Numbered from the stretch's first letter, positions 1,737 to 27,220 are shown. The stretch: DNA of 64,000 nucleotides from Nitrospirota bacterium (GCA_963737155.1 CAVTRN010000002.1:1696001-1760000), one strand, 5' to 3'. Program-made: numbers and translations. Notes: generated from the letters alone by a model not told the origin.

Positions 1737-1743
1737 ACTGTCT

Positions 1744-7153: not shown

Positions 7154-8019
7154 AACAACAGCCACTTGACGCCTATTTTGTCGCCTTGGAACGGTTAAAA
7201 CAACGAGTCCCTACAGTTGTCCCTAAGGGGACAAAGATAACCAATGATGCTGTAGCCCTTGAGGCTGGGCGGGGAAAGGGAAGTATCAAAAAGTCGAGAG
7301 ACGTTTTCTCGGATCTGATTATTGCTATAGACGAAGCCGCGGCAGAACAGGCCAAGCCTAAAAATGAGAAAAAAGTTCAATTGGAGAAAGCCAAAGGCAC
7401 TGCGCACCAACTGCGACGGGAACTTGAAGCGGCATTGGGACGGGAGGTTTCTTTGCTCCAGGAACTCTTTGAGACCAAGCAGAAATTGGCCAAACTAACG
7501 GGTGGAAACGTTCTGCCGATCCGCGGTCTGAACTCTAAAGGCCGAATGGAACACAAGGCCGAAATTAAGGAAATTATTATCCTCATCGGAATCCCCGCAA
7601 GTGGAAAGTCAACATTTTATGATACACGGCTCAGCAAAACGCATGTTAGGTTGAGTCTCGATATCGTAAAATCTCGATTCCGTGAAATGACACTTTTCAA
7701 AGAATATTTAGCTGCAAAGCTGAGTGTAGTTGTAGACAATACAAATGTAACTACTTCCGACCGAAATCGTTATATAGAACCAGCCAAAGCGGCAGGCTTT
7801 CAGGTTAAAGGCTTCTACTTTGAAGCGGACGTAAAAGAATCTCTATTGCGTAACGAGTTGAGAGTGGGCAAGAACAAGCTGCCAGCAGTAGCAATCTATA
7901 CCTCAAACATGAAAATGGAACTCCCAAGGCTAGATGAAGGATTTGATGAGCTTTATACTGTGAACCTTGCTCCTGCTGGAGAGTTCAGAATTTCACGTTG
8001 GAACCTCGAAAAGCAATAG
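7150..8019 (+). CDS. GinD/TnpC-like small DNA-binding protein fused to an AAA_33/polynucleotide-kinase-like P-loop domain
   Basis: N-terminal ~130 aa (ITNDAVALEAGRGKGSIKKSR plus coiled coil). C-terminal GIPASGKST Walker A, VVVDNTN, LRNELR, PRLDEGFDEL. Confidence 0.75.
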   Translation: MKQQPLDAYFVALERLKQRVPTVVPKGTKITNDAVALEAGRGKGSIKKSRDVFSDLIIAIDEAAAEQAKPKNEKKVQLEKAKGTAHQLRRELEAALGREVSLLQELFETKQKLAKLTGGNVLPIRGLNSKGRMEHKAEIKEIIILIGIPASGKSTFYDTRLSKTHVRLSLDIVKSRFREMTLFKEYLAAKLSVVVDNTNVTTSDRNRYIEPAKAAGFQVKGFYFEADVKESLLRNELRVGKNKLPAVAIYTSNMKMELPRLDEGFDELYTVNLAPAGEFRISRWNLEKQ

Positions 8020-8341
8020 ACGATGATGCAGGTCAAAACAAGGAACGCCAAATCAACGAACAACGACCTTGACAAGTTTCATAATCAGCTTGAGTCTGTT
8101 CTAGTCGGCATTGTCGAGCATTTATTTTATTGAGCGGCGCAGGTCGTTGGCTTTCGCTTCGGTGCAGCTGTCGGTTTTTTGACCAGATTTCTGAAATTCT
8201 CTTTTACAGCAAAAAAGCAATAAATACCACTTCAACCACCTTCTCCCTCTTAATCTGTTTTCTGGACTTTTGCGACCATTTGTAGTAATCTCTTAAACAA
8301 TTCAATTATTTGCGTCCGTTGCATCCCTCTTTTTATAAATA

Positions 8342-11191
8342 ATGAATTTAACTGACTACCATGCAAAATTCTTTGCCCATGAGCTAACGAAGCGTTGCGC
8401 TTCAGACAGCATTGAAAAACTTGCCGGCGCGTTGGTTGATGCCCAGGTGGACCTAAATCCCCATCAGGTGGATGCTGCACTCTTTGCCTTCAGGTCACCG
8501 CTCTCAAAAGGGGGAATCCTTGCTGATGAAGTCGGGCTAGGTAAGACCATTGAGGCCGGGCTCGTCATATCGCAGCACTGGGCTGAGCGCCATCGTCGCA
8601 TTCTGATCATCACGCCTGCTAACCTTCGAAAACAATGGCACCAGGAACTGCAGGAAAAATTCTTTCTGTCCTCGATAATCCTTGAAAGCAAGCCTTACAA
8701 CGAAGCAATCAAAAACGAGAATTTCCGTCCTTTTGAATCAGACAAGATCATTATCTGCTCCTATCAGTTTGCACGCGGTAAAGCAGCAGATGTCAATGCT
8801 ATACCGTGGGATCTTGTTGTGATCGACGAAGCTCACCGATTGCGCAATGTGTACAAACCGTCCAATGTTATCGCAAACACGTTAAAGCAGGCACTGATAC
8901 ACACGCCTAAGCTGCTCCTCACTGCCACGCCGCTCCAGAATTCGCTCCTGGAGCTATATGGTCTTGTTAGTTTCATCGATGAGCACACTTTTGGCGATCT
9001 CAAGAGCTTTCGCGAACAGTACGCTAATTTGAGTGATGAACGCACATTCGCAGCGCTCAAGGCACGCCTCAAACCGATCTGCCACCGGACCCTCCGGCGT
9101 CAGGTGCTACCCTATGTGCGCTTTACCCAGCGATATTCCATAGTTCAGCCATTTACTCCAGAGGAGAGCGAAGACCGGCTCTACAATTTTGTTTCCGACT
9201 ATCTTCGTCGCGACAACCTGCAAGCCCTTCTATCAAGCCAAAGGGCACTCATGACATTGGTACTCAGGAAAATCCTCGCTTCCTCGTCCTTCGCTATCGC
9301 CGGTTCTCTCGAAACTTTAAGTAAGCGTCTCCAACTCCGAATTAAGAAACAGGAACCAGAAGCACCCCTTTCGGACGAACTCGACAAGGATTACGAAGCC
9401 CTTGGGGAGACAGCAGATGAATGGGGAAATGGAGAACAAGAGACGCCGTTATCCGCCGAGGACAGAGCAGCCATTGAACAGGAAATCAGTGATCTCGAAA
9501 GCTTCCGACAGCTTGCTCTCTCCATTGATTACAATGCTAAGGGAAGAGCACTTTTAAAGGCGCTTGAAATCGCATTTGCCAAAGCACGAGAAATCGGAGC
9601 CGAAGAAAAGGCTATCATCTTCACTGAATCTCGCCGCACACAGACCTATTTGCTGCGCGTACTTGCCGAAAGTCCATGGAGTGCAGGTGTCGTCCTGTTT
9701 AACGGCACAAACAACGACGAAAGCTCACGTCAGATATACAAGGACTGGTTCAAAAAGTATGAAGGCACGGACCGTGTCACTGGATCGCGCACCGCAGATA
9801 TGCGATCGGCGCTTGTCGATTACTTCCGGGAAGAAGGCAGGATCATGATTGCCACCGAGGCGGGCGCAGAAGGTATCAACCTCCAGTTCTGTTCTCTTGT
9901 TGTAAATTACGATCTACCCTGGAACCCCCAGCGCATTGAGCAGCGAATCGGTCGTTGCCACCGCTACGGCCAAAAGCACGATGTTGTGGTCGTGAATTTC
10001 CTGAACCGGAAAAACGAAGCGGACCAGCGCGTTTTCCAGCTACTTTCGGAGAAGTTCATGCTGTTCGAGGGGGTCTTCGGCGCAAGCGATGAGGTTCTCG
10101 GTGCAATTGAATCCGGCGTGGATTTCGAGAAGCGTATTGCCGACATCTATCAGCGATGCCGCACGCCGGAGGATATAAAGGCATCGTTCGATCAGCTTCA
10201 GCTTGAGATGAATATCCAGATCGACGAGGCCATGACGCGTACCCGTCGCCAGCTGCTTGAAAACTTCGATGATGAAGTACGAGAAAAGCTTCGTGTGAGC
10301 GATGAAAGTACCCGACAATACCTTAATCGCTATGAACGTTTGCTTATACAGCTCACGCGATATGAATTGGGCAATCATGCGGAGTTTTTGGATGATTCGT
10401 CCTTTCGATTAAAATCTTGCCCTTTTCATGGAGACATCCCAATCGGCCTCTATGAGTTACCCAGACGGACCGGTGAAGCCCATCTTTACCGACTAAGCCA
10501 TCCGCTGGCTGCCAGTATCCTTGAACAGGCTAAGGTGCGCAACGTTCCTCCTGCTGAGATAATCTTCGACTATAGCGGACACGAGGGTAAAGTTAGCAGG
10601 TTGGAGCCTTATATTGGGAAACGTGGGGATTTACTTCTCAGCCTCTTTACAGTCGAATCACTTGACCAGGCCGAAGACCATGTGCTTTGTTCAGCTATTA
10701 CCGAAGATGGTCAGATTCTTGAGGAAGAACTTGCACAAAGGCTTTTGTCTTTGCCGGCGAAAGTTGTTTCTCCGTTGACAGACACCCCGAATAGTGACAA
10801 ACTAAAAGCGCTGACAGAACAACGCCAGAAAGCTATTCAAAAAGGCATCTCCGAAAAAAATGCGAAATATTTTGAGATCGAGGCGGAAAAGCTGGACGGG
10901 TGGGCGGATGATCTGAAGCTTGGTTTGGAGCGGGAGATCAAGGACCTTGACCGGCAGATTAAAGAGACCAGGCGCACAGCAACAGCAGCATTGACCCTGG
11001 AGGAGAAGCTTGTTGGACAGAAACAGATCAAAGCTCTTGAATCACAGCGAGGCCAGAAACGTAAGTCATTGTTCGAGGCCCAGGATGAGATTGATAGGCA
11101 ACGGGAGAGCCTAATAAGGGAGATTGAGGGAAAGCTAAGCCAAAAGGTTGAGCTGGTCAACTTGTTTCGCTTGCGGTGGAGGCTGACATAA
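8342..11191 (+). CDS. SNF2/RapA-family helicase associated with type III RM
   Basis: LADEVGLGKT, DEAH, LTATP, EGINLQ, DLPWNPQRIEQRIGRCHRYGQ. Confidence 0.92.
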   Translation: MNLTDYHAKFFAHELTKRCASDSIEKLAGALVDAQVDLNPHQVDAALFAFRSPLSKGGILADEVGLGKTIEAGLVISQHWAERHRRILIITPANLRKQWHQELQEKFFLSSIILESKPYNEAIKNENFRPFESDKIIICSYQFARGKAADVNAIPWDLVVIDEAHRLRNVYKPSNVIANTLKQALIHTPKLLLTATPLQNSLLELYGLVSFIDEHTFGDLKSFREQYANLSDERTFAALKARLKPICHRTLRRQVLPYVRFTQRYSIVQPFTPEESEDRLYNFVSDYLRRDNLQALLSSQRALMTLVLRKILASSSFAIAGSLETLSKRLQLRIKKQEPEAPLSDELDKDYEALGETADEWGNGEQETPLSAEDRAAIEQEISDLESFRQLALSIDYNAKGRALLKALEIAFAKAREIGAEEKAIIFTESRRTQTYLLRVLAESPWSAGVVLFNGTNNDESSRQIYKDWFKKYEGTDRVTGSRTADMRSALVDYFREEGRIMIATEAGAEGINLQFCSLVVNYDLPWNPQRIEQRIGRCHRYGQKHDVVVVNFLNRKNEADQRVFQLLSEKFMLFEGVFGASDEVLGAIESGVDFEKRIADIYQRCRTPEDIKASFDQLQLEMNIQIDEAMTRTRRQLLENFDDEVREKLRVSDESTRQYLNRYERLLIQLTRYELGNHAEFLDDSSFRLKSCPFHGDIPIGLYELPRRTGEAHLYRLSHPLAASILEQAKVRNVPPAEIIFDYSGHEGKVSRLEPYIGKRGDLLLSLFTVESLDQAEDHVLCSAITEDGQILEEELAQRLLSLPAKVVSPLTDTPNSDKLKALTEQRQKAIQKGISEKNAKYFEIEAEKLDGWADDLKLGLEREIKDLDRQIKETRRTATAALTLEEKLVGQKQIKALESQRGQKRKSLFEAQDEIDRQRESLIREIEGKLSQKVELVNLFRLRWRLT

Positions 11192-11382
11192 TGACACCTG
11201 ATGAAGAAATAGCCGCCAATATTCTCAGTCAATTCAAAGAAATTAAACTTCTTTCAGATGATGCTATTAAGAAATTGGGAGATTCATTAGCTAAAGGACA
11301 AATCAGTGCTGAAGAATGGCGGCTTGTATTTGAAACTGATCAGCCCATGACGGGGGACGGCGATGGCCACAAAGATAACTAA
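11191..11382 (+). CDS. small hypothetical protein (63 aa) coupled between helicase and ATPase
   Basis: TAATG overlap with the helicase stop; overlaps the ATPase start by 20 bp. Confidence 0.7.
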   Translation: MTPDEEIAANILSQFKEIKLLSDDAIKKLGDSLAKGQISAEEWRLVFETDQPMTGDGDGHKDN

Positions 11383-13738
11383 GATCAACATGGCCGGTTT
11401 CAGAGGATCAGTTACGCCTTCTGAAATTGTGTTAGATCCGAATAAGCCTGTTACCTTGATCTTTGGAGAGAATGGAACAGGGAAAACTACAATTGCAGAT
11501 GCCCTCGATTTCACATGCAATAAGTCGTTCGGCTCACTCGATAATTACAGTTTTGGACAAGGAGCATCCGCAAAGAAGTTCGTTCCCTCGATAGGATGTA
11601 AACCTGCAAGCTTAAGTGTGTCAGTTACTTGTGGTGATAAGAAATGGACAGCTATATTGGCAAAAGACGGCCCTTCTGTTTCGCCCACTACAGATTGCCC
11701 AGATGCACGCATCCTGAGGAGAAGGACAATACTAAAGCTTATCGAAACTCAGCCAAAGCAGCGTTATGAAGAACTGAAAACCTTCATCGCTGTGCCCGGT
11801 ATTGAAGCCTCTGAGAATGGCTTGCGAAAAGCTATCGATAATATTGATCGCATGTTCAATGAAGCTGTGCGCGCTTTATCTCAGGCAACTGAAGAATTGG
11901 ACAAACTATGGATTGCCGAGGGGAAGCCCGAAAATACAGCGGTCAAATGGGCAACGATCGAGTCTAAGAAGGATGTAACTCAACTTCAATCCAACGTGAT
12001 AGCGGCTGACAATGTGTTGCGGTTACTGCAGTTATGCGACGAACCCCTTGCTGCTTTAGATAAAGTTCTCGAAGAACAAAAGGAAGCTGAAGTGGAACTT
12101 AGCACTGCGGAGGCAACGCTAAAAGAAGCAGAGGCAAAACATGCTGAACAAAATGCAAACCTGGTAAAACTTCTTCAAGATGCAAAGAAATATATTGGTC
12201 AGCAAGAGGTACTTTCGAGTTGCCCTGTATGTGAGAACAAAATAGATTCGGCAATCCTGATAACCCGTCTTGCTGAAAGAATTACACAAATGCAAGAACT
12301 GGCTAGCCTGATGGATAGCGTTACTGCGGCGCGGCGACAAGTTGATGGGAAGAAAACTCTGTCAGCACAAGCGCAAAAGAACTTCTGCTCTAAAATAAAA
12401 TCCGCAGGAACCGCTCTTAAGGGTTCAACACTTAAAGAAGTTCTATCGCTAGGAATAGATTGGCAAGAGTTTGACGACGTTCTATTACATGAAGAGTCAG
12501 ATGACACAATAGAGCTAAAGTGTCGCTCATTCTGGGCAATAGTGTTACCCTGTCGCGAGCCGATTCAGGCGCTAAAAAATGCGGAACAAAAGTCTGTAAA
12601 CCAGCATAACGCAATAGCAGGCCATGTTGATACGCTGAAAAAAAAAGCTGTTGATGCCAAGAATTATGAGATATTAGTATCTAAACTAAAGAAGGCGCTG
12701 GACATAGTCGCGACTCAAAGAAAGACCTATATAGAAGGGGTACTTGCAGGAATCGCCACAGAGGTTGAAGCGCTTTATACTAAACTGCATCCTGATGAGG
12801 GTATCGGTGCGATTAGATTCTATCTTAAACCGAATACGATCGGTTCTCTCGAGTTTGATGCTCGGTTCCAAGATGTTGAAGAAGTTCCACCGCAAGCATA
12901 TTATAGCGAGTCCCACTTAGACACTCTTGGGATATGCGTATTTCTAACGCTATCAAAACGTTTCAAAACGAAGAATACTGTTATCGTGCTGGATGACGTT
13001 TTAACCTCGATTGACGGTCAGCATCTGCGGAGATTTATGGATTTACTACATAAGGAGGCAAACCTATTTAATCAAGTTATTGTGACGACCCACTATAGAC
13101 CTTGGCGTGACATGTATCGGTGGGCAAAGGGTCCTGCTGCAAATACGCAATTAATAGAGCTCGGTCCTTGGACCTTGACAAATGGATTGCAAGTTCGACA
13201 ATTCTTTACTGCAGTTGATGAGTTGCGGGCCGAGCTCGAACGACCAAAAATTGATCGTCAAGCCGCATCATCTAAAGGAGGCATTGTTCTTGAGTCTCTA
13301 CTCGATTTCTTAACGCTAAAATATCGCAGTCCACTGCCTCACAATTTGACTAATGAATACACCTTGGGGGAACTTGCTGCAGGTATCGATTCCAAGCTCG
13401 GGAAAGAACTGCGCGTTCGAAAACCGTTAGCATCAGGTACAGGGATATCTGAAACAAACCTGAAACCCCTGATCGTCATTGCCACAGGCCCCAATTGGAT
13501 TCGCAACTGTGTGGGATGTCATTTCACCAAACTTGGAAGCGAAGTCTCAGATCAGGATGTTCTCGCTTTTGCTAATGGTGTCTTAGCTCTTGCCGATCAA
13601 TTAATATGTGGATTGTGCGGAACGCTTCCGACTAGAAGACCTTCGGGAAGTAACTGGCAATGTAAGTGTGGCAAACTCGAACTATATCCACTCGTATATC
13701 CAGGGGCAGATCCTAAAACTGTTGATGATGAGAATTGA
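11363..13738 (+). CDS. RloC-like SMC/Rad50-type ABC ATPase with zinc hook, C-terminal HEPN-like motif and Zn ribbon
   Basis: Walker A GENGTGKT; coiled coil with CPVC; YSESH signature; VLDDVLTSID Walker B/D-loop; VTTH; RNCVGCH (R-x5-H); CGLC...CKC. Confidence 0.75.
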   Translation: MATKITKINMAGFRGSVTPSEIVLDPNKPVTLIFGENGTGKTTIADALDFTCNKSFGSLDNYSFGQGASAKKFVPSIGCKPASLSVSVTCGDKKWTAILAKDGPSVSPTTDCPDARILRRRTILKLIETQPKQRYEELKTFIAVPGIEASENGLRKAIDNIDRMFNEAVRALSQATEELDKLWIAEGKPENTAVKWATIESKKDVTQLQSNVIAADNVLRLLQLCDEPLAALDKVLEEQKEAEVELSTAEATLKEAEAKHAEQNANLVKLLQDAKKYIGQQEVLSSCPVCENKIDSAILITRLAERITQMQELASLMDSVTAARRQVDGKKTLSAQAQKNFCSKIKSAGTALKGSTLKEVLSLGIDWQEFDDVLLHEESDDTIELKCRSFWAIVLPCREPIQALKNAEQKSVNQHNAIAGHVDTLKKKAVDAKNYEILVSKLKKALDIVATQRKTYIEGVLAGIATEVEALYTKLHPDEGIGAIRFYLKPNTIGSLEFDARFQDVEEVPPQAYYSESHLDTLGICVFLTLSKRFKTKNTVIVLDDVLTSIDGQHLRRFMDLLHKEANLFNQVIVTTHYRPWRDMYRWAKGPAANTQLIELGPWTLTNGLQVRQFFTAVDELRAELERPKIDRQAASSKGGIVLESLLDFLTLKYRSPLPHNLTNEYTLGELAAGIDSKLGKELRVRKPLASGTGISETNLKPLIVIATGPNWIRNCVGCHFTKLGSEVSDQDVLAFANGVLALADQLICGLCGTLPTRRPSGSNWQCKCGKLELYPLVYPGADPKTVDDEN

Positions 13739-13864
13739 ATAAGGAAAATATGCTGAGGGAGTAGAAAGATGTCACTCTATACCAGAAACGAACTGCGCCA
13801 AAGAAGGCAGCGGTTAGCAGCGCCTGCTCACAGTCGTTGAATACAGATATAGGATTATGTCGCT

Positions 13865-14725
13865 ATGACAAATAACAACAAGGTCGTATTGTTTGTAGAT
13901 ATTCTCGGGTTTGCCTCATTAACGGAGTCATGCCCGCTTGATCTTGATCTCTTGAAAGCACACGACAGACTTTTTGCCAATTATGAAAAGATTATGGCCT
14001 CACCCGATAATCAATTGATCCGTACTTTTTCAAAGTTTCATTCATCTCTTAGGTCGAATCTTAACCTTGCAAGCATGGAGCACTCATTGACTGCCATTAC
14101 ATTCTCTGATTCAGCTTTTATTACGACGACGTACGCTTATGAAGCTGTTAATATCGCGATTAGTCTCCAGCAATCATTGCTCTGGCAGAAGGTCCCGGTT
14201 CGAATGGGTATCGCTTATGGTTCGTTTGCAGCACTGAGGTTCAGATCTGACATCAGCGCCGATGATGGGGATCACGCGGCTCAATTCCTCGGGACTGGCA
14301 TAGTGCGTGCACATGCTGCAGAAACCTGTGGGATTAAGGGGCTTAGAATCTTGCTCCACCCATCAATTATACCCCTGTTCGATAATACCCGCCATAACCC
14401 TAAATCTCCCGATGAGATGTCGCACCCGATGCGTTATCTCGAATGTCCGGAAAAAGATCGGACTAAAAATAAGATTGGTGTGCACAATGAAATAGACTTC
14501 TGGCATTTCAAGCCCACAAAGGAAGCCGACGTATGGCACGCATTTCAAGACATGTGGAAGGACGCACCGGAATCTGAATATGAACACTACGAAGAAACAG
14601 CAGAAGCCATCAATCGAATGAGGATAGCCCAGGGCTATGAGCCCTTAAGTAACTTACGACGTCGAATTTTGCCGAGGGGCGTTACCAAGTCAAGTAAAAA
14701 CATTTCCACCGGCAAAATGAATTAA
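13865..14725 (+). CDS. stand-alone class III nucleotidyl-cyclase-like protein
   Basis: VLFVDILGF (first metal Asp), TFSDS (second Asp), VRMGIAYG, FLGTGIVRAHAAE, GLRILLH, in cyclase-fold order. Confidence 0.65.
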   Translation: MTNNNKVVLFVDILGFASLTESCPLDLDLLKAHDRLFANYEKIMASPDNQLIRTFSKFHSSLRSNLNLASMEHSLTAITFSDSAFITTTYAYEAVNIAISLQQSLLWQKVPVRMGIAYGSFAALRFRSDISADDGDHAAQFLGTGIVRAHAAETCGIKGLRILLHPSIIPLFDNTRHNPKSPDEMSHPMRYLECPEKDRTKNKIGVHNEIDFWHFKPTKEADVWHAFQDMWKDAPESEYEHYEETAEAINRMRIAQGYEPLSNLRRRILPRGVTKSSKNISTGKMN

Positions 14726-14788
14726 CTATGATGAACAAATAATATAAACGCGAACCACTTTGGAAAAGACCAAGGCGGAGATATACAA

Positions 14789-15361
14789 GTGAAGCTCAAA
14801 TTACTGCCGTCACTTTTGATTTTTATAAGTTCATATTTTCCATTGGCACTGATCTTTTTGATAAAGGATTTAGATGCCAAAACCTATTATCCGCAGCATC
14901 CATATGTAGCTGGGGCGGTCACCGTTGTAACATTGTTGGCCTGCTTCAGTGCCATTTTTGCCGCTCGTTCTATAAATGGCGGTGTTCCAGTAAAGATTGT
15001 AAGGATATCCAATAAATCTGGTGACATGTTTACGTACACAATTCCCTACATGATTTCATTCTATAATTTTACGCTAGGAGATTGGAAAACACTGCTAAGC
15101 TTATTGGTGTTCATGATTTTGATGTTTGCACTGGCTTATAGAACTCAAAACTTGCTGGTAAACCCAGTTCTCGCCTTGGCGGGTTACGGGCTTTATGATT
15201 GCCAGTTTAAGGATGGCGCTACGGATAATCAAGGCTTTCTATTATCAAAGGATGAATTCAGGGTCGGTGATGCATGCGTTATAGAAAGGCTTTCAACTTT
15301 TCTATATTTTGTGACAAAAACCATTCCAGCGGAGAACGGTCATGACAACCAAACCAGCTAA
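14789..15361 (+). CDS. kwaA: Kiwa anti-phage membrane protein KwaA-like
   Basis: Four predicted TM segments; SSYFPL, YTIPY and NPVLALAGY motifs; overlaps the kwaB-like gene. Confidence 0.75.
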   Translation: MKLKLLPSLLIFISSYFPLALIFLIKDLDAKTYYPQHPYVAGAVTVVTLLACFSAIFAARSINGGVPVKIVRISNKSGDMFTYTIPYMISFYNFTLGDWKTLLSLLVFMILMFALAYRTQNLLVNPVLALAGYGLYDCQFKDGATDNQGFLLSKDEFRVGDACVIERLSTFLYFVTKTIPAENGHDNQTS

Positions 15362-15612
15362 AAGGATAGCACATCTTCGCAAGATCGATTTTAAATCGTG
15401 GCATGCTACTCTCTGGTTGATAAAGCGACATCTAGTGAATAGGGAGGCGGTATACTCTGTTCTTCGCGTTGATATTGATAAAAAATTGCAAGTTAGACTT
15501 AAAAAGTCGACCACTGATAAGGTGCAAAACAGCCAGTATAAACTAGAAGAGTACTCATTTTCGACAGCAGACCAAGACGAACACGCTTTTACGATGGATA
15601 CGACCGAAAATG

Positions 15613-17136
15613 GACGAGGTCAAGCTTTTAGTTGAAATTATCTGAGTGGCCCGTTCCCTTCGGCTAAAGTATTTTTATCGGTTCAACGGTGTAAATCATC
15701 GCTGTTTATAAAATCGGATTCGTAGGATCGCCATATGTGAGTTTTCTGAGGCCGAGCCATACCTAACCATCCCCCTTTACGCAGCCTCTTTGACTGTTAG
15801 GTCATTTAATTCTTCCGCTTCGATCCGTTTCATCACGTCCGCGATGAAGGCGTGGCCCTTGATCTTTCTGAATCCTTGTTCAGCATATAAGAGGACAGAA
15901 GCGAGCCAGCGCTGCATCATCTTGCTGTCGCGGTAGCGCTTTATATTGCCTTCTGCTTTTCTCACCGTGGAAAACATGCTCTCGATAGGATTGGTAGAAT
16001 GCAACGTCTTCCTCAAGAGAGCGGGGACCTTCAATCGATGAAGGGTGAGAATGTCTTCTATCGCTTCCATGAGCGAATCAGCCGCCGACTCATTAATGCC
16101 CCGAAGCCATTTCTCCATGTCCAGAAGCATCTGACGAGCGTCCGCGTAATTATTCTGCTCCAGGGCTGTCCGGAACCTCCAGTGTGCGCCTTTCCGGTAT
16201 TTCTTCGGCAAATGATGCTGTATATTCCGGTCCTTGTGGATCGTGCACCGCTGATGGATGAGTTTCTTACCGAAGCGATCCCGGAGTGCCTTGATTACGC
16301 CCTTGCCGCCATCGGTAACCCAGATGATTCGTCGTGAAAGTATCAGACCCCGCCGCTCTATATCAGAAAACAGCTCTTCACACAGTTCATGGTTCTCCGT
16401 CGCCCCCTGCCAGAACCCCAATGTCTGCTTCTTTCCGGCAATATCAAGCCCCAGCGCCACGATGAATGCCTCTCCGCCGCGGTGAACAGTGTCTAAAAAG
16501 ACCGCAAAGGGAACGAATGACGTGAGTGACCGTTCCTTAAACTCCTGAAGCTGTTTTGCTGTTGCCGCGACGATATGGCTCGATACCGTGCTGGCGGACA
16601 CTCCAAATGCTCGTGCCGTATCTACAACTGTCTCCGCATACTTCCGGCATGATATGCCCCGAAGCACCTTTCCAAGCAATTCTTCTGCGAAGACTTCCGG
16701 TTTTTTCATCTTCTGATAGCTCTGCAGTACAATCTCACCCGCCGGACCTCGAAGCCGAGGGTGGGTCACCGGGATCTTCTGATCGCCGATATAGACGGAA
16801 CCGCCCTGGCTAGCCCACTTCCGCAGATCGGGACTGTTAGGCTGGTAGTCGGGGCCGGCAATCTCCTCCCGCTCGATGTACATGATCGTCTCTGCCATCA
16901 TTCTGCCCATTTCCTTCATGCATTCATCAAAACCCTGTTTCCCTTTTGCGAAGACACAATACATCTGTTCGATGATCTCCCGCCTTCCGTATGCCTCTTC
17001 AATTCCTCGTATTGCCTTTTTTCTCTTCCTTGTGGTATCCTTCATTGAGTGGCTCCTTTCTTTTTTCTCTCTCTACCGTGGATTATGCCACGGGGAAGCC
17101 ACTCTTTTCAATTTCAACTAAAAACAGTATAACCTG
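15613..17136 (-). mobile_element. IS256-family insertion sequence (1524 bp)
   Basis: 8-bp TSD CGAAAATG at 15605-15612 and 17137-17144; imperfect TIRs sharing TTTTAGTTGAAATT. Confidence 0.92.
15777..17045 (-). CDS. IS256 (Mutator-type) DDE transposase
   Basis: VFLD, VTDGGKG, HQRCTIHKDRN, STNPIES motifs. Confidence 0.93.
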   Translation of the reverse strand: MKDTTRKRKKAIRGIEEAYGRREIIEQMYCVFAKGKQGFDECMKEMGRMMAETIMYIEREEIAGPDYQPNSPDLRKWASQGGSVYIGDQKIPVTHPRLRGPAGEIVLQSYQKMKKPEVFAEELLGKVLRGISCRKYAETVVDTARAFGVSASTVSSHIVAATAKQLQEFKERSLTSFVPFAVFLDTVHRGGEAFIVALGLDIAGKKQTLGFWQGATENHELCEELFSDIERRGLILSRRIIWVTDGGKGVIKALRDRFGKKLIHQRCTIHKDRNIQHHLPKKYRKGAHWRFRTALEQNNYADARQMLLDMEKWLRGINESAADSLMEAIEDILTLHRLKVPALLRKTLHSTNPIESMFSTVRKAEGNIKRYRDSKMMQRWLASVLLYAEQGFRKIKGHAFIADVMKRIEAEELNDLTVKEAA

Positions 17137-17822
17137 CGAAAATGATTTTATCAAAATTCAACGAGAAATTGAAAAAGGACTTCAAAACAAGAAGGCGCAA
17201 ACATATGAAGAACTACTCAATTCATGGGCGTATGTAACCAAGCTTGAACATGATGGCGCGACTGTTTACGGCGTGAAAAAGATTAACGCCATAACGAAAG
17301 CCAAAAAAGTTTATAGTGTCGCCACATTATTATTTCAAGATCACTTGTTGGTTGACCTTGCTGATAAAGAAGTGTTAACTATACCAACAGACCTAGATTT
17401 TTTTGTCTATGATGGGACAACGTTCATTACTAATAAGAAGGCTTTTGAGAACACCTTGAACTTTCGCAGAGGAATGGAAAACAACCGAGACCTTGTTTTG
17501 GAAGAATTCGGATCACTTCGGTTATTTAGCAGCATTGAACCTATCAAAAAGATAGTTGGGTCTAATCTTCATTTATTGAGGATGCTGTCTTCAATTCAGA
17601 AGAGTGGCTACTATAAAGACAAAGTATACATGGAAAATCTGATCAAACTTAATGAAATAGAAAACTGGCAACTTGTTATAAACGATAATCAAATTGTTGT
17701 GACTGAAGAGAATGTAGAGCTTGTGCTCACATTGCTTAATAATAACCGTCTTAAATCGCCTATTAATCAGGAAGTATTCGATGCACAAGTTAAGAAAAAG
17801 GTCAGTTGAATAGGGTAGCGGA

Positions 17823-19451
17823 ATGATAAACAAGACGAAACTAGAATTAACCTGGATCGGCAAGGAAAACCGGCCAAAGCTAGAGCCGCGTATTCTGCTC
17901 GAAGATCCGGAAATGTCCTCTCACGCGAAACACCGTACGACGAAAAATGATATTTTCGACAACTACCTCATTTTCGGGGACAATTTGCTTGCACTTAAGG
18001 CGCTGGAGCATGATTTTACCGAAAAAGTGAAGTGTGTGTTTATCGATCCGCCATATAACACTGGGAGTGCTTTTGAACACTATGATGATGGTATAGAGCA
18101 TTCTATCTGGCTGTCACTAATGCGAGATCGATTGGAGATAATTAGAAGACTACTGGTCCAGGACGGGTCATTATGGATTACTATTGATGACAATGAGGCT
18201 CACTACCTTAAGGTTTTATGCGACGAGGTTTTTGGACGTGGAAATTTTATTTCTTCTGTTACTTGGATGAAGCGCGTCTCACCTGCCAACGATGCAAAGT
18301 ATCTGAGTTCCGACCATGATTTTATCCTGATCTATGCGAAAGACAAATCTTCATGGAGACCCATTCGTCTCCCACGTGGAGATCAACAAAACGCCTACTA
18401 CAAGAACCCCGACAAGGACCCACGAGGCCCTTGGAACTCAGTTACCTATACAGGGAACAAAACCAGAGCCGAGCGGCCTAACCTTTACTATGGCATTAAG
18501 AACCCAAACACAGGTGAACTAGTGTTCCCGCCAGAAACGTTAACGTGGAGATATGGACAGGAAACTCATGAAAAAAACACAACAGAGCAGCTTGTGTACT
18601 GGGGAAAAGATGGACGTTCAAAGGTACCACGCCGAAAAATGTTTTTGGAGGATGCAGAGCCAATCGTTCCTAGAAGTGTTTGGCTAAGCAGCGAAGTTGG
18701 AAGCACTCAGACATCAATGGTTGAGCAAAAAACTCTTTTTTCGGCCCCCTTTGCAACTCCGAAGCCTGAGCTTTTATTGCAACGAATCATTCATATTGCC
18801 ACAAATCCTGGCGACCTCGTTCTCGATTCTTTCGCCGGTTCTGGAACGACCGGAGCTGTAGCGCATAAGTTGGGGCGGCGGTGGATTATGATCGAACTGG
18901 GCGAGCATTGCCACACGCACATCATTCCGCGCATGAAGAAGGTAATCGACGGCCAGGATCCGGGCGGGATCACCGAGGCGGCGGGCTGGAAGGGTGGTGG
19001 GGGATTCAGGTATTATCGTCTTGCGCCGTCATTGCTTGAAAAGGACAAGTGGGGCAATTGGGTCATTAATAAACAATACAATGCTGCAATGCTCACAGAA
19101 GCGCTCAGCAAATTAGAGGGTTTCACCTACGCGCCGAGCGATGCAGTTTATTGGCAGCATGGACATTCGAGCGAGCAGGATTTCATCTATGTTACGACAC
19201 AGAACCTGAACCATGAGCAACTCCAGGCTCTCTCTGATGAAGTTGGGTCACGCAGGTCGCTTCTAGTCCTATGCTCAGCTTTTCGCGGCAAGTCCGATCG
19301 TTACCTGAATCTGACGATCAAGAAAATCCCGAACGCGGTCTTAAAGCGCTGTGAGTGGGGGCATGACGACTATAGCCTACAGGTAGAGAACCTACCCAAG
19401 GCCCCACCAAAAAAGGGGCAACAATCACTGTTTGAAGAGGAGGCAGAATAA
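17823..19451 (+). CDS. mod: type III RM methyltransferase (Mod, N6-adenine, beta class)
   Basis: GDNLLAL, IDPPY, TPKPE, LDSFAGSGTTG. Confidence 0.92.
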   Translation: MINKTKLELTWIGKENRPKLEPRILLEDPEMSSHAKHRTTKNDIFDNYLIFGDNLLALKALEHDFTEKVKCVFIDPPYNTGSAFEHYDDGIEHSIWLSLMRDRLEIIRRLLVQDGSLWITIDDNEAHYLKVLCDEVFGRGNFISSVTWMKRVSPANDAKYLSSDHDFILIYAKDKSSWRPIRLPRGDQQNAYYKNPDKDPRGPWNSVTYTGNKTRAERPNLYYGIKNPNTGELVFPPETLTWRYGQETHEKNTTEQLVYWGKDGRSKVPRRKMFLEDAEPIVPRSVWLSSEVGSTQTSMVEQKTLFSAPFATPKPELLLQRIIHIATNPGDLVLDSFAGSGTTGAVAHKLGRRWIMIELGEHCHTHIIPRMKKVIDGQDPGGITEAAGWKGGGGFRYYRLAPSLLEKDKWGNWVINKQYNAAMLTEALSKLEGFTYAPSDAVYWQHGHSSEQDFIYVTTQNLNHEQLQALSDEVGSRRSLLVLCSAFRGKSDRYLNLTIKKIPNAVLKRCEWGHDDYSLQVENLPKAPPKKGQQSLFEEEAE

Positions 19452-22123
19452 TGAACCGTCTTGTGAATGCCATTTCCGGACGGCTCAGTCTCCGGCCACC
19501 TCAAAAACGATCTCTTGAAATACTAGATAGGATCACGGAGATCGTTTCGCCTCGCAAAGGTGCGGACATTCAAGCCGCACTCGCTACCATCAAGTCTGAA
19601 TTCCCCACTGTAACTGACTTTGAGCGTGACTTTCCCTCGCTTTGCTTTGCTCTGGCTACCGGCGTTGGCAAGACACGGCTCATGGGAGCTTTTATCAGCT
19701 ATCTTCATCTTGCCCACGGCATCAACCATTTTTTCGTTCTTTCGCCGAACCTCACGATCTACAACAAGCTCATTGCCGACTTTACGCCGAATACCCCGAA
19801 GTATGTGTTCAAGGGAATAGCCGAGTTCGCTGTAGATCCTCCCGTCATCATCACCGGTGACAATTACGAATCCGGCGTAGGTGTGCGGGCAGGCGTATTG
19901 CCAGGGATCGATATGTCGGTCCATGTAAATATCTTCAATGTATCGAAGATCAATTCCGAAGTCCGGGGTGGAAAGTCTCCACGCATCAAGCGTTTGTCCG
20001 AGTACATAGGTGAAAGCTATTTCGAATACCTCGCTGGGCTTGACGATCTGGTTCTTCTCATGGACGAATCACATCGCTACCGCGCTTCCGCAGGCATTCG
20101 GGCTATCAACGAACTGAAGCCCGTTCTCGGTCTGGAACTGACCGCGACTCCAATTGTGGAGACAGCGAAGGGAGCGATCCAGTTCAAGAACGTGATCTTT
20201 GATTACCCTCTGTCAAAAGCAATGGAGGATGGCTTTGTAAAGGAGCCCGCTGTTGTTACTCAGAAGAACTTCGATCCCAAGCAGTTCACTCCGGAGCAGA
20301 TCGAGCAGATAAAGCTTGAAGACGGTATCCGACTGCATGAGAATACCAAGGTCGAGCTTGAGACCTATGCACGACAGACAGAACAGCGGATCGTGAAGCC
20401 CTTTATGCTGATCATTGCCAGAGATACGACCCATGCCAGCCAGTTGAGCGAATATATCAAGTCTGAAAAGTTCTTTGAAGGACGGTACAAGGATAAGGTG
20501 ATCCAGGTCGACTCGAGCAAAACTGGTGTTGAAGAAGACGAGATGGTCGCGCGCCTGCTGAAGGTCGAAAGCTCCGATGAGCCGACGGAGATTGTGATCC
20601 ATGTGAACATGCTCAAGGAAGGCTGGGACGTGACGAACTTGTACACTATCGTGCCCCTCCGTGCTGCTAATGCACGAGTCTTGATCGAACAGTCAATTGG
20701 ACGCGGCCTGCGGCTGCCTTATGGAAGGCGAGCCGGGGTGAACAGTGTTGACCGTCTAAATATTGTTGCCCATGACCGCTTCCAGGAGATCATCGACGAA
20801 GCAAATAGGCCGGACTCGGCAATCCGACTCCAACAGATCATTCTTGACCCGACTACTGATATGCAGAAGATGCAGACAACAGTTGTGCAATCTACCCTTG
20901 CCACACAGATAGGGGCTGTGAAGACAGAAGGTCAGGCACCTAGCGCAACTGCCCCACCTCTGTTTTCAACCGAGGCAGAGCGTACTATTGCGCTGGCGAC
21001 GGTAGACATCATCAAAAAGTACGAAAACCTGCCGGGATCGAACCATTTGTTGAAAAAGGAAGTGCAGGAGAAGATTGCAGCGGAAGTGGCAGAGTTTGTT
21101 GCACCGATGCAGGCTGCTTTGCCGGGGATTACGCAAACACCAAACATCGCAGCCGTTGTTGCGAAAACCGCAGAGCTCATGGTTCAGCAGACGATTGATA
21201 TTCCGCGAATTCTCGTTGTTCCCAAAGGCCAGATAACCGTTGGATTTCACCCATTCATGCTCGACTGCTCAGGCATCCGGTATCAACCAGTTGAACGGGA
21301 TTTGCTTATCCAACACCTTAGGACGAACGCTCAGGAAACCCTGGGTTTCAGCGGCAGTGGTCAGCATGAGAGCAGACTTGAAGATTACCTTGTTCGAGGA
21401 TTGATTGACTTTGACGATATCTCCTATGATGAGCATGCGGACCTCCTGTACGACCTTGCTGGCCAGATGGTGAAGCATTTGCGCTCATACCTTTCCGAAG
21501 ATGACACGAAGAATGTGTTGCTTTACCATCAGAAACAGCTGGCATCATTCATGCTCGCTCAGATGCAGGAACACCAATGGGAGAAGGCGGCAGATTATGA
21601 AGTGATCGTTAGCAAGGGTTTCACTGAACTGAAATCAAGCGCCTTTACTAACAGAGCTAATGAGCCTGTCTTTGATTTCCGAAATACCGTCGAGGACAAA
21701 ACCAGAATCGGCCAGATGCTGTTTGGTGAGTTTAAGCGCTGTTTATATCCGATACAAAAATTCCACTCTGACACTGAACGGAAACTTGCAGTCATTCTCG
21801 ATCGGGAAGCACAAAAATGGCTCAGGCCAGCGATTGGTCAGTTCCAGATCTTCTATAAATCAGGCGTTGTCCAGGGTGACTATATCCCGGACTTCGTGGC
21901 CGAGACAGACACGTGCATTTATATGATGGAACCCAAGGCCCGAAACGAGATGGATAGCACCGAGGTACAGGCCAAGAAGGATGCGGCCGTAAAATGGTGC
22001 ACACATGCGACAAAGCATTCCACAGAAAATGGCGGGAAACCGTGGAAGTACTTACTTATTCCGCACGACGCGATTATGGAAAATATATCGATAGCGGGGT
22101 TGGTCAGTCAGTACGGGTCCTAA
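19451..22123 (+). CDS. res: type III RM restriction subunit (Res helicase-nuclease)
   Basis: ATGVGKT, DESH, LTAT, LKEGWD, QSIGRGLR; C-terminal YIPDF..MEPK PD-(D/E)xK. Confidence 0.9.
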   Translation: MNRLVNAISGRLSLRPPQKRSLEILDRITEIVSPRKGADIQAALATIKSEFPTVTDFERDFPSLCFALATGVGKTRLMGAFISYLHLAHGINHFFVLSPNLTIYNKLIADFTPNTPKYVFKGIAEFAVDPPVIITGDNYESGVGVRAGVLPGIDMSVHVNIFNVSKINSEVRGGKSPRIKRLSEYIGESYFEYLAGLDDLVLLMDESHRYRASAGIRAINELKPVLGLELTATPIVETAKGAIQFKNVIFDYPLSKAMEDGFVKEPAVVTQKNFDPKQFTPEQIEQIKLEDGIRLHENTKVELETYARQTEQRIVKPFMLIIARDTTHASQLSEYIKSEKFFEGRYKDKVIQVDSSKTGVEEDEMVARLLKVESSDEPTEIVIHVNMLKEGWDVTNLYTIVPLRAANARVLIEQSIGRGLRLPYGRRAGVNSVDRLNIVAHDRFQEIIDEANRPDSAIRLQQIILDPTTDMQKMQTTVVQSTLATQIGAVKTEGQAPSATAPPLFSTEAERTIALATVDIIKKYENLPGSNHLLKKEVQEKIAAEVAEFVAPMQAALPGITQTPNIAAVVAKTAELMVQQTIDIPRILVVPKGQITVGFHPFMLDCSGIRYQPVERDLLIQHLRTNAQETLGFSGSGQHESRLEDYLVRGLIDFDDISYDEHADLLYDLAGQMVKHLRSYLSEDDTKNVLLYHQKQLASFMLAQMQEHQWEKAADYEVIVSKGFTELKSSAFTNRANEPVFDFRNTVEDKTRIGQMLFGEFKRCLYPIQKFHSDTERKLAVILDREAQKWLRPAIGQFQIFYKSGVVQGDYIPDFVAETDTCIYMMEPKARNEMDSTEVQAKKDAAVKWCTHATKHSTENGGKPWKYLLIPHDAIMENISIAGLVSQYGS

Positions 22124-22165
22124 GAGCTTTACCGTCAATTTCCTTATAACTCATGGGAGGAACAA

Positions 22166-23095
22166 ATGGCAAATTTGTTTTGGAAACGGGAAGGGAACAA
22201 AACGCTAAATCTGCTTTCAACGCCATTTGATACGGAAGAAGCTTTTGAAAAGGTTGTTTTTGAAACGAAGGAAATTCTTGAGGATATTTTCCTCATTAAA
22301 AGACAAATCAGGGGTGGCAAAAAGCCAGGTATTCCTGATATCGTTGGTATAGACAGTGAGGGCAACGTTTGCATCGTTGAAATGAAGAACGTAGCTGTTG
22401 ATTCATCTATCATTCCACAGGTATTGTCTTATGCTTTTTGGGCGCAGAACAATCCTGATGCAATTAAAAATCTTTGGCTTGAATCTCCTCGTCAATCTGA
22501 AGAAGTTGAAGTAAATTGGGATAACTATGATGTACGCATAATCATTATTGCTCCATCAATTGAGCGTTCAACACTAGAACTCGTCAATACGATTAATTAT
22601 CAGGTCGACTTAATTGAAATTAAGCGGTGGGTCGAAGGTAAAAATCATTTTTTACTGGTTAACAAACTTGAGCCAGAACAGACCAAGAAAACGACAGCAG
22701 TCAGAGGGCTTGAGGTATATGACAAAGCGTTCTATGAAAAATATCGTAATAAGAATAGCGTTAAAGCTTTTCTTGCATATACAGAAGAAACGCGAAAATT
22801 AGTAAAGAAAAAAGGCTGGCCTCTTGAACTGAAATACAATAAAGGCTATAGCGGGTTCAAGCACGGTTTTTTTAATGCATTTGGTATTCATTGGGTGGGC
22901 TCGAAATCGTTTGCCTTTTTTTTCAAACTGCCGAAAGCTGTTGCAGTAAAATATCAGCCAAAAGGTATTAAGATGGATAGATATAGCGATCAGTGGAAAC
23001 AAGCGGAATATAGAATTGATACGACCAAAACGAAAGTTAATGCATTCACAAAGTTGTTTGAAAAAGCATTAGAGTCTATCACACAAGTTGATTAA
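22166..23095 (+). CDS. NucS/DUF91-like PD-(D/E)xK endonuclease with C-terminal domain
   Basis: E..FE, IPDIVGID..IVEMK, QVLSY motifs. Confidence 0.7.
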   Translation: MANLFWKREGNKTLNLLSTPFDTEEAFEKVVFETKEILEDIFLIKRQIRGGKKPGIPDIVGIDSEGNVCIVEMKNVAVDSSIIPQVLSYAFWAQNNPDAIKNLWLESPRQSEEVEVNWDNYDVRIIIIAPSIERSTLELVNTINYQVDLIEIKRWVEGKNHFLLVNKLEPEQTKKTTAVRGLEVYDKAFYEKYRNKNSVKAFLAYTEETRKLVKKKGWPLELKYNKGYSGFKHGFFNAFGIHWVGSKSFAFFFKLPKAVAVKYQPKGIKMDRYSDQWKQAEYRIDTTKTKVNAFTKLFEKALESITQVD

Positions 23096-23121
23096 ACTTC
23101 TGAACTAGGCATTTGGGTCTC

Positions 23122-23277
23122 GTGACCAGCAATGCAGTCTGTTATACAAGAGAAGAGCTCTACGAGCAGGCCTGGTCGCAGCCGATGACGACACTGGCCA
23201 ACAACCTTGGTTTGTCCGACGTGGGGCTAAGAAAAAAATGCAAGGTTACCCCAATTAGCCGCAAAAAATTAACCTAA
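23122..23277 (+). pseudogene. truncated HTH-like gene fragment at the island right end
   Basis: Read manually: TREELYEQAWSQPMTTLANNLGLSDVGLRKKCK, the N-terminus of a family common in mobile elements, cut short by the end repeats. Confidence 0.6.
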
Positions 23278-25001
<1,724 letters not shown>

Positions 25002-25049
25002 ACAGCCCTCTCGGTGCGCTCTGCGAACATGCTGTGAAGAAAGGTTTTT

Positions 25050-25916
25050 ATGAAACTTGGATTCCATGTTTCTATCTCTGGCGGTTTCGCTCTCTCCGTC
25101 CAGCGTGCTTTCGAATTGGGCTGCACCTGCATGCAGATATTCAGCCGCAATCCGCGCGGCTGGACCGTTAAGCCCCTTGATCAGCATGATATCGCGGAGT
25201 TCAAAAAACTTCGAGAGCAATGGGACGTTGGGCCAGTCTTCGTACACGCGAACTATCTCATCAACCTCGCTTCACAAAAACCCGATTTATATGAAAAGTC
25301 TATTGCGCAGTTGGTGATTGATCTTGAACGAACTGAGCAACTGGGCGCAGAATACTTGGTCACCCATCTTGGCTCTGCAAGCGGCAAGGATCCGGCATGG
25401 ATGATCGATCGCGTGTCGTCGGCTTTGAATATGACGATGAGGCTTCATCCACCGCAAGCTACGATTCTTTTGGAAAACACGGCCGGCGAAAAAGGGGATA
25501 TCGGTTACGAGCTTGAACAGGTCCAAGAAGTCATTGTGCGTCTCGTCGATGCTAGAAACATCGGTGTCTGTTATGACACCTGCCACGGTTTTGCAGCAGG
25601 ATATGACATCCGAACGAAGAAGGATGTCGACGCTCTTGCAAATAAGATTGAAGCGACCGTGGGGTTGAAACGGTTGAAAGGCATGCATTTGAACGATTGT
25701 CTCCGCGAGTTCGGTTCCCATGTCGATCGGCACTGGCATATCGGAGAAGGCAAGGTGGGACTCGATGGATTTAAAATCCTGCTGAATCATCCGGCATTCA
25801 AGGATGTGCCGAAAATCATGGAAACGCCGAAAGAATCGGAAGAAGACGATCCGAAAAATATGAAGACGGTGAAATCGCTTATCAGGGTGGATAACAAACG
25901 TGTATCGCGAAGATGA
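25050..25916 (+). CDS. nfo: endonuclease IV
   Basis: GFHVS, QIFSRNPR, HANYLINL, LENTAG, DTCH, HLND, DRH motifs. Confidence 0.93.
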   Translation: MKLGFHVSISGGFALSVQRAFELGCTCMQIFSRNPRGWTVKPLDQHDIAEFKKLREQWDVGPVFVHANYLINLASQKPDLYEKSIAQLVIDLERTEQLGAEYLVTHLGSASGKDPAWMIDRVSSALNMTMRLHPPQATILLENTAGEKGDIGYELEQVQEVIVRLVDARNIGVCYDTCHGFAAGYDIRTKKDVDALANKIEATVGLKRLKGMHLNDCLREFGSHVDRHWHIGEGKVGLDGFKILLNHPAFKDVPKIMETPKESEEDDPKNMKTVKSLIRVDNKRVSRR

Positions 25917-26830: not shown

Positions 26831-27220
26831 ATGAATGATAGAATCAATAGGACAATGCAAACCAGGCTGAAGCAGGCACGGGAGGCTTTGGAGGAAGCGA
26901 AAGACTTGTTAGTGCAGGATGCTGCCTTGAATTTTGTTATGAATAGCATGTATTACGCCTTCTTATACGCCCTCTGGGGATTGCTGGAGTCACAGGGAAT
27001 ATCAGCTCCTCCGTATAGGACGGCTATTTCCTTTTTTGAACAGGAGTTCGTCCTGACCGGGAAAATTGAGAGAAGGTTCTACGATGCACTGCGACAAGCC
27101 TTTGATCTTCGGCCGGCATGCGACTGTGAAGGCAGAAAGAAGGTAACGGCAGAAGACATAGAGCAATTATTGCCGATTGCCGATAATTTCCTCGATATTG
27201 TTGGTCGATTCATTGAATAG
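26831..27220 (+). CDS. HEPN domain protein (UPF0332-like), no adjacent nucleotidyltransferase
   Basis: A.EAL..A..L, NSMYYAF, F..EFV.TG, AFDLR..CD pattern. Confidence 0.75.
   Translation: MNDRINRTMQTRLKQAREALEEAKDLLVQDAALNFVMNSMYYAFLYALWGLLESQGISAPPYRTAISFFEQEFVLTGKIERRFYDALRQAFDLRPACDCEGRKKVTAEDIEQLLPIADNFLDIVGRFIE

Follow-up and report, generated by a model that had tools for sequence, protein, structure and literature searches.

Does a SNF2-family helicase that stands upstream of a type III-like restriction-modification (RM) pair, with several other defence genes between them, belong to one composite machine or to a smaller unit that carries exchangeable passengers? This question is raised by positions 8342–23095 of a 64,000-nucleotide (nt) stretch of DNA from a Nitrospirota bacterium (GCA_963737155.1, CAVTRN010000002.1:1696001-1760000), which, at its full length, we call the window. 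A first-pass annotation, made by a model from the sequence alone, had read this run as a candidate undescribed composite system, with the helicase, the methyltransferase Mod and the restriction subunit Res as its three components and accessory modules nested among them. Our comparison of related loci indicates that the SNF2 helicase, the type III-like Mod and Res probably constitute a conserved, horizontally mobile three-gene unit with interchangeable cargo in slots. The helicase-Mod-Res core of the earlier proposal is retained, and the nested modules prove to be interchangeable cargo, so the run is not one obligate machine. Because the arrangement recurs across phyla, it lies far beyond chance.

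The 16 proteins of the window were compared with Pfam, PADLOC and NCBIfam models. The open reading frames (ORFs) of the run lie where the first-pass annotation had placed them:

8342–11191, plus strand: SNF2-family helicase/translocase, 949 amino acids (aa); scaffold gene 1 (Pfam and PADLOC)
11191–11382, plus strand: small protein of 63 aa (ATG at 11191), opening a two-gene cargo cassette
11363–13738, plus strand: Rad50/SMC-like ABC ATPase, 791 aa; cargo module 1 (AAA_23, AAA_15, SMC_N)
13865–14725, plus strand: class III nucleotidyl-cyclase-like protein, 286 aa; cargo module 2, one gene (Foldseek)
14789–15361, plus strand: kwaA (Kiwa); cargo module 3 (PADLOC KwaA 1.9e-53, residues 1–177)
15342–15612, plus strand: kwaB 5′ part, up to the insertion site (PADLOC KwaB PDLC00235 positions 1–89, 7.6e-27)
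15613–17136, minus strand: IS256-family insertion sequence (IS), 1,524 bp, within kwaB (Transposase_mut, transpos_IS256)
17137–17809, plus strand: kwaB 3′ part (PADLOC KwaB positions 89–310, 2e-90; Pfam KwaB 1.3e-35)
17823–19451, plus strand: type III-like Mod methyltransferase, 542 aa; scaffold gene 2 (N6_N4_Mtase, MTase_III)
19451–22123, plus strand: type III-like Res, 890 aa; scaffold gene 3 (ResIII, REase_III)
22166–23095, plus strand: PDC-S18 candidate defence gene, 309 aa, weakly NucS-like (PADLOC PDC-S18)

The overlapping start and stop codons of the earlier description are present at four junctions: helicase/small ORF (1 nt, the ATG of the small ORF at 11191 overlapping the helicase TAA), small ORF/ATPase (20 nt), kwaA/kwaB (20 nt) and mod/res (1 nt). 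All the named genes lie on the plus strand, as that description had it, but its single co-oriented run is broken by the minus-strand IS256-family element in kwaB. This element and a second slot, between mod and res, were absent from the first-pass annotation.

Linkage and co-divergence of helicase, Mod and Res

One genome per species was scanned for the helicase, which yielded at least 760 confirmed hits, and the best 80 loci (given below as L numbers) were analysed, with gene calls that are crude ORF picks labelled via cluster representatives. The 3′ end of the helicase gene is preserved in 73 of the 80, and in 52 of these the downstream sequence extends for at least 8 kb. A co-oriented type III-like mod lies 3′ of the helicase in 51 of the 52, and res as well in 49. 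The Mod is more than 45% identical to that of the window in 46 loci, 44 of them with Res; five (L011, L015, L031, L036 and L078) carry a long-form type III pair, with a Mod of ~1,020 aa (PDLC03646) and a Res of ~1,050–1,100 aa (PDLC03654), and one (L009) has Res without Mod. Cargo is also found between the long-form Mod and Res of L031 and L036. The reverse test started from Res: a tblastn search of plasmids gave 35 records, 23 with at least 80% coverage, and when one per genus was examined, res was preceded by a SNF2 gene in all seven plasmid loci, with a methylase in between. Plasmids of Ketogulonicigenium and Paracoccus hold bare triads whose genes abut or overlap. Thus, the link of the helicase to Mod/Res that the first-pass annotation assumed is borne out from both ends.

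The arrangement extends to distant relatives. The E. coli helicase homologues, labelled only 'SNF2-related protein' in RefSeq, are only 46% identical to that of the window and the gene order is unchanged; megablast of the locus against E. coli genomes found only ~200 bp of similarity, in the helicase. The E. coli locus, helicase-IetA-IetS-Mod-Res, occurs in 74 of 5,426 complete genomes, among them those of strain 55989 and of O104:H4 strains. The E. coli chromosomal loci L001–L003 sit among integrase and IS genes, with tRNA-Phe adjoining L002 and tRNA-Leu adjoining L003.

A few loci depart from this layout or extend it. L062 (5194–9683) has no Mod, and the genes after its helicase encode multiubiquitin, an E1-like ThiF/DUF6791 protein and an OLD-like ATPase. 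In L083 (3046–8999), where Mod is missing too, the helicase precedes a Schlafen-like gene, a type III Res of yet another kind, the third (PDLC03647), and a Ppl-like protein. The helicase start is overlapped by a WYL-domain gene on an Aeromonas plasmid (L087, 3249–4160) and by a small helix-turn-helix (HTH) gene on a Salmonella plasmid (L084, 4685–4885), both possible regulators of the unit.

The helicase matches the Pfam families SNF2-rel_dom (1.6e-35) and Helicase_C (5e-20), and its SNF2 motifs are invariant in 30 sequences. Among PADLOC models, DrmD PDLC02619 scores 5e-213, compared with 4.9e-51 for HmaA. The NCBIfam model DISARM_DrmD_b is matched with 711.7 bits against a cut-off of 950, by aa 31–667 only (profile positions 23–655 of 868). 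The nearest solved relative is RapA (E 7.5e-40). The remaining C-terminal region (aa 660–949) is predicted to form an alpha+beta domain with a long coiled-coil hairpin (predicted local distance difference test score, pLDDT, 91.6), for which Foldseek returned RapA chains alone at E ≤ 0.001 (best 7e-5), with a low template modelling (TM) score of 0.34. Judged by sequence and model, the helicase is DrmD_b-like in its core and, by prediction, RapA-like in its C-terminal domain. The family comprises at least 8,000 proteins; the best 120 are 72–100% identical and come from several phyla, and the closest homologues, with 93% and 86% identity, bear Nitrospirota names.

Mod matches Pfam N6_N4_Mtase (PF01555; 7e-51) and PADLOC MTase_III (5e-214) and has the beta-class layout, in which motif IV (DPPY) stands ahead of motif I (FxGxG) and the central target-recognition region is hypervariable. 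Residues D75-P76-P77 and D335-S336-F337-x-G339-S340-G341 are invariant in 36 sequences. Res, encoded directly after mod, is an SF2 ATPase with a C-terminal PD-(D/E)XK nuclease motif (Pfam ResIII 3.5e-19; PADLOC REase_III PDLC03648 7.6e-225); its motifs GVGKT, DL-x3-MDE, QxIGRGLRLPYG and P813-D814...E827-x-K829 are invariant in 30 sequences, and it is distant from the EcoP15I Res (E 1.3e-6). The catalytic motifs are therefore kept in all three scaffold proteins, and by sequence both Mod and Res qualify as type III RM proteins. Complex prediction for Mod with the helicase C-terminal domain returned a score of 0.00, which speaks neither for nor against binding.

Mantel tests on 30 full-length triads, each with 2000 permutations, showed that helicase and Res diverge in step (r = 0.89, reached in 0 of 2000 permutations). 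The value for helicase and whole Mod is 0.36 (4 of 2000); it is 0.47 for the Mod core (0 of 2000) and 0.09 for the Mod target-recognition region (395 of 2000). For cargo, r is 0.38 with the AIPR proteins (1 of 2000) and 0.77 with the ATPase (0 of 2000; 14 loci, several closely related). These values fit a unit whose two ends appear to be inherited together and whose interior is exchanged. Conserved synteny and co-divergence thus lend sequence-level support to the view, put forward in the first-pass annotation, that helicase, Mod and Res would form a three-component system.

Cargo slots and their turnover

The helicase-to-mod interval, slot 1, ranges from 5 bp to 5,881 bp and is occupied in 51 of 55 loci; four measure <200 bp, 23 measure 1–2.2 kb, 11 measure 2.2–4 kb and 17 measure at least 4 kb. 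In the window it spans 11192–17822 (6,631 bp, including the IS) and holds three modules. The four short intervals are those of L017, L023, L037 and L063, of which only L037 and L063 are bare, L023 having its cargo in slot 2. Where a triad is bare, the gap amounts to 5–22 bp or gives way to overlapping stop and start codons. In L017 (4123–12032), slot 1 is empty, an IS66-family element lies in mod and an IS3-type (rve) element in res. Slot 2, between mod and res, measures <150 bp in 30 of 48 loci and 320–2,545 bp in the other 18; in the window it is empty, as mod and res overlap by 1 nt.

Consistent with the variable interval that had been predicted, slot 1 contains mostly known or candidate defence genes. 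The commonest cargo is AIPR/AbiU-like (29 ORFs), followed by the small-protein and ATPase cassette (19 ORFs). The named systems include IetAS, Septu, AbiL, AbiE, PD-T4-6, Ppl-like proteins, Kiwa (L024), SIR2-HerA with a MORC-like ATPase and short prokaryotic Argonaute (pAgo) with SIR2; the candidate systems include HEC-01, HEC-06/GmrSD-like and PDC-M30/M41. Unexplained families (DUF2130, Schlafen/AlbA_2, HNH including one protein of ~580 aa, HD and PLD-like) are present as well. Slot 2 holds PDC-S05, AbiD, Fic/PDC-S04, PDC-M56, an NsnB-like ATPase and PDDEXK_3. A PADLOC model is matched at E ≤ 1e-6 by 41 of 60 representative cargo proteins, and of the 121 cargo ORFs that reach 120 aa, 112 have the orientation of the scaffold. 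Minus-strand slot ORFs were considered as transposases; none of the ten tested matches any Pfam family, and they are probably spurious. Variable co-oriented genes between core genes, many of them known defence systems, are what characterises an embedding scaffold, and the loci show this pattern.

Among the ten pairs of loci with the closest helicases (at least 89% identity), seven differ in what slot 1 holds, and the window shares no cargo with its nearest relative, L004, whose helicase is 85.5% identical. The breakpoints are sharp. DNA homology between related loci stops within ~20 nt of the helicase stop, restarts within ~10 nt of the mod start, drops again in the Mod target-recognition region and then continues to the end of res; where one locus of a pair has slot-2 cargo, homology restarts at the res start. 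Between the window and L004, the homologous blocks are 8351–11142, 17838–18238 and 18749–21867, so that the Mod target-recognition region (~18239–18748), where homology with L004 is interrupted, makes a third exchangeable segment. Comparison of the loci therefore shows a unit with two slots, helicase/mod and mod/res, and a swappable Mod target-recognition region, with modules that, on the evidence of the alignments, are exchanged exactly at gene boundaries.

The unit also has outer limits. In L040/L059, L018/L034, L075/L080 and other pairs, homology sets in ~8–60 nt 5′ of the helicase start codon and runs out close to the res stop, which suggests that triad and cargo behave as a discrete mobile block. 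The pair L074/L077 departs from this, its synteny reaching far upstream.

Cargo modules of the window

The first module is a cassette of the 63-aa protein and the Rad50-like ATPase. Relatives of the ATPase number 19 ORFs in related loci, and a homologous ORF of 58–84 aa lies directly 5′ of the ATPase gene start in 17 of 17 relatives, even away from the helicase (an 18th row of this survey is the second piece of a split gene in L054, with no small ORF there). Walker A, a CPxC hook in the coiled coil, Walker B and a C-terminal RN..G.HF motif are invariant in 15 of 15 relatives. The protein scores 0.99 against SMC/SbcC-like Atlas clusters, matches AAA_13 with its Walker-A stretch alone (aa 30–51, 2.6e-5) and, among the best 25 of 39 PADLOC matches listed, has a LmuB-like match (8e-22) only. 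The HEPN-like motif noted in the first-pass annotation is real as a motif, given its invariance, but no Pfam HEPN model matches the ATPase, nor does a PrrC model among the same best 25 of 39 PADLOC matches. A zinc cluster around the ATPase R-x5-H motif was considered and dropped, as the cysteines are not conserved. We take the architecture, with its CPxC hook and C-terminal R-x5-H motif, to resemble that of RloC; by analogy, the cassette is possibly a guard of RloC-like architecture.

The second module is the 286-aa gene, which has no match in Pfam (including Guanylate_cyc), PADLOC or NCBIfam and no homologue in the other 83 loci. Its family has at least 656 homologues, and the protein scores 0.98 against the Atlas cluster 'guanylate cyclase'. 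The AlphaFold2 (AF2) model has a pLDDT of 72 with a disordered stretch at 121–153; class III adenylyl cyclases head its Foldseek matches (E 4e-5, prob 1.0), with TM scores of 0.36 (query) and 0.59 (target). The earlier label, cyclase-like, thus finds support in the predicted fold but not in profile matches. F10-x-D12-x-x-G15-F16 and S81-D82-S83 are invariant in 31 sequences, and we infer that D12 and D82 correspond to the metal-binding sites of cyclases.

The third module is Kiwa, with kwaA intact and kwaB in two pieces where the system calls for adjacent kwaA and intact kwaB. The IS256-family element within kwaB is single-copy in the window and encodes a 422-aa transposase (15777–17045, minus strand; Pfam Transposase_mut 4.9e-35, NCBIfam transpos_IS256 5.7e-61). 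A perfect 8-bp target duplication, CGAAAATG, borders the element, whose terminal inverted repeats are imperfect. When the element is taken out, kwaB reads as an uninterrupted frame of 311 aa. The perfect duplication and the intact frame make the insertion look recent, and the Kiwa of the window, judged from its sequence, is presumably inactivated by the IS.

The PDC-S18 gene lies 43 bp 3′ of res (PADLOC 4e-123); its match to the NCBIfam NucS model is weak (1.1e-7, aa 22–143). As no PDC-S18 homologue lies downstream of res in the other 83 loci, the gene adjoins the scaffold and is outside the conserved unit.

Relation to known systems and rival readings

In named systems, the conserved partners of DrmD- and BrxHII-type helicases are methylases, and class 1 DISARM consists of DrmA, DrmB and DrmC with DrmD and DrmMI. 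Could the locus be a variant of such a system, whether of class 1 DISARM or of Hma? DrmD models give the helicase its best matches in PADLOC and NCBIfam, HmaA is matched too (4.9e-51), and HEC-01, HEC-06, PDC-S04, S05, S18, M30, M41 and M56 were defined from those scaffolds. Against this stands the absence of any DrmA-, DrmB- or DrmC-type protein among the 16 window proteins: the PADLOC matches listed (best 25 of 39–60 for helicase, ATPase and Mod) include no DrmB or DrmC, and the one DrmA-model match listed comes from the SNF2 helicase, as a secondary match (8e-37). The helicase remains below the DISARM_DrmD_b equivalog cut-off and matches that model in its core only; no NOV_C domain was found with Pfam and no HmaB or HmaC is among the PADLOC matches listed; and Mod and Res match type III models (5e-214 and 8e-225). 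We therefore consider a named-system variant very unlikely. That the run of nine genes is one obligate system of interdependent parts is less credible still. Its genes share one orientation and overlap or lie close together, but the interval content differs between close relatives such as the window and L004, cargo-free triads exist (L037, L063 and the two plasmids), Kiwa, IetAS and Septu are named stand-alone systems, and kwaB is disrupted in the window.

A more serious contender, though an unlikely one, is that the helicase is autonomous, a single-gene defence or a RapA-like factor that merely travels with a type III RM system, the slots being ordinary defence-island junctions. SNF2 proteins can defend alone, HmaA by itself having been reported to protect against T4 (PMC11232893), and homology that begins just 5′ of the helicase and ends at res is what one mobile block would give. 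Yet the linkage is near-universal in both directions and spans two unrelated Mod/Res forms, bare triads have gaps of 5–22 bp or overlapping stop and start codons, the gene order never varies, and the helicase tracks Res far more closely than AIPR cargo (r 0.89 against 0.38).

The three-gene unit with interchangeable cargo, which we prefer to these readings, has points against it as well. Classical type III systems need no helicase: two subunits are enough, and cleavage takes ATP and two unmethylated sites in inverse orientation; the third conserved gene raises doubt that two subunits suffice here. The helicase is a putative partner of Mod/Res, and the co-divergence could reflect co-inheritance of one mobile unit and not physical co-operation. 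Since Res is only remotely EcoP15I-like, type III enzymology is assumed. A promoter and terminator scan of 7900–23400 found 17 terminator-like sites where 16 are expected, which is chance level and offers no support for co-transcription. The loci sampled are the top 80 of 760 hits by similarity, and most of them are metagenome-assembled contigs. Finally, IetAS is present in 74 of 74 E. coli genomes with the locus, so exchange is not rapid within a species.

How might such a unit work? Mod would mark host DNA, and Mod/Res would restrict unmarked DNA in type III manner, with the RapA-like SNF2 translocase as a dedicated third partner. Our best guess, a speculative one, is that the translocase removes or rearranges proteins bound to DNA, allowing sliding Mod/Res complexes to meet. 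Cargo may be expressed along with the scaffold, serving as second-line or abortive defence, and would most likely be exchanged through recombination in the conserved flanking genes. A bolder version, which we hold only tentatively, makes the triad a distinct, unnamed ATP-dependent restriction class in which the RapA-like remodeller would be required, for example to free invading DNA of RNA polymerase or other roadblocks; the loci would then be a dedicated cross-phylum two-slot platform, and the ATPase cassette a RloC-like guard that fires on inhibition of the triad.

That defences can be embedded in defences is already on record for scaffolds of other kinds (Payne et al. 2024 preprint, 10.1101/2024.01.29.577857). 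According to that preprint, 62.7% of Hma systems are occupied by insertions, a high occupancy like that of the 51 of 55 loci here, and in Halomonas Hma insertions are reported between hmaA and hmaBC (PMC11232893). The likeness extends to the plan, a helicase and methylase scaffold with co-oriented interchangeable defence modules in its intergenic intervals, and to a shared cargo repertoire of Septu, Ppl, GmrSD-like HEC-06, HEC-01 and PDC families. Unlike Hma, our loci have a DrmD_b/RapA-like helicase without NOV_C, a type III Mod as methylase and Res, not the HmaC ATPase, as third gene; the scaffolds covered in the text of the preprint do not include type III RM. The locus is thus best seen as a new scaffold for an already known phenomenon and not as a new category.

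With classical type III RM (EcoP15I/EcoPI), the locus shares a mod upstream of an overlapping res, a PF01555 methylase with DPPY before FxGxG, and a Res made of an SF2 ATPase and a C-terminal PD-(D/E)XK motif; it differs in its third conserved gene, the SNF2 helicase, in its two cargo slots and in a Res that reaches only E 1.3e-6 to that of EcoP15I. The helicase resembles DrmD of class 1 DISARM, BrxHII of type 3 BREX and RapA in its SNF2 core with a DNA methylase partner and in its RapA-like C-terminal alpha+beta region, a BREX survey describing the C-terminal region of BrxHII as RapA-like (PMC12839542). It differs from this group in that it has no DrmA, DrmB, DrmC, PglZ or DUF499 partners, that Pfam detected no N-terminal Tudor domain (helicase motifs begin at ~aa 30), and that its C-terminal domain includes a long coiled-coil hairpin. 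As for the cassette, PrrC and RloC are described as RM-linked anticodon nucleases, PrrC lying within the type Ic RM locus EcoprrI, much as BrxU lies within BREX (PMC12707154). The window ATPase is likewise an ABC/Rad50-like ATPase embedded in an RM locus; unlike PrrC and RloC, it has no sequence membership in those families and has a conserved small partner protein.

The novelty claimed in the first-pass annotation is only partly answered. No named system fits the three-gene core, and no description of a SNF2 and type III Mod/Res triad or of its slots was found in the literature searched, whose coverage mostly excluded subscription journals. Some loci may be counted as DISARM in the supplements of preprint 10.1101/2024.01.29.577857, because the helicase matches DrmD models. 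With at least 760 species-level matches, the unit is a widespread new anchor for finding defence genes by embedding, and its slots hold unexplained families that include the cyclase-like gene and the pair of small protein and Rad50-like ATPase. It raises the question of what a SNF2/RapA-like motor contributes to type III-like restriction, and its sharp homology breakpoints at gene boundaries make it a clean system for studying the exchange of defence cargo.

Several genes flank the run. Directly 5′ of the helicase, at 1642–8019, lie four co-oriented ORFs of 522, 661, 675 and 289 aa with overlapping or abutting ends at 5126 and 7150–7153. The 522-, 661- and 675-aa ORFs have no Pfam match, and those of 661 and 675 aa have none in PADLOC or NCBIfam either; the 289-aa ORF encodes an AAA_33/polynucleotide-kinase-like P-loop protein. 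The genes at 3141–8019 were considered as part of the system and set aside, since the 661-, 675- and 289-aa ORFs have no homologue in the other 83 loci. The four ORFs may form an operon that has nothing to do with the run, or else a neighbouring defence system not yet described. On the other side, 23325–25916 contains a LigA-like NAD-dependent ligase of 558 aa, which matches the LigA profile from position 134 of 664 and so misses the N-terminal part, followed by an AP_endonuc_2/xylose-isomerase-like TIM-barrel gene. Farther out, the region is flanked by genes for a 129-aa HEPN-domain protein (26831–27220) and a 126-aa Xre-type HTH protein (583–963, minus strand).

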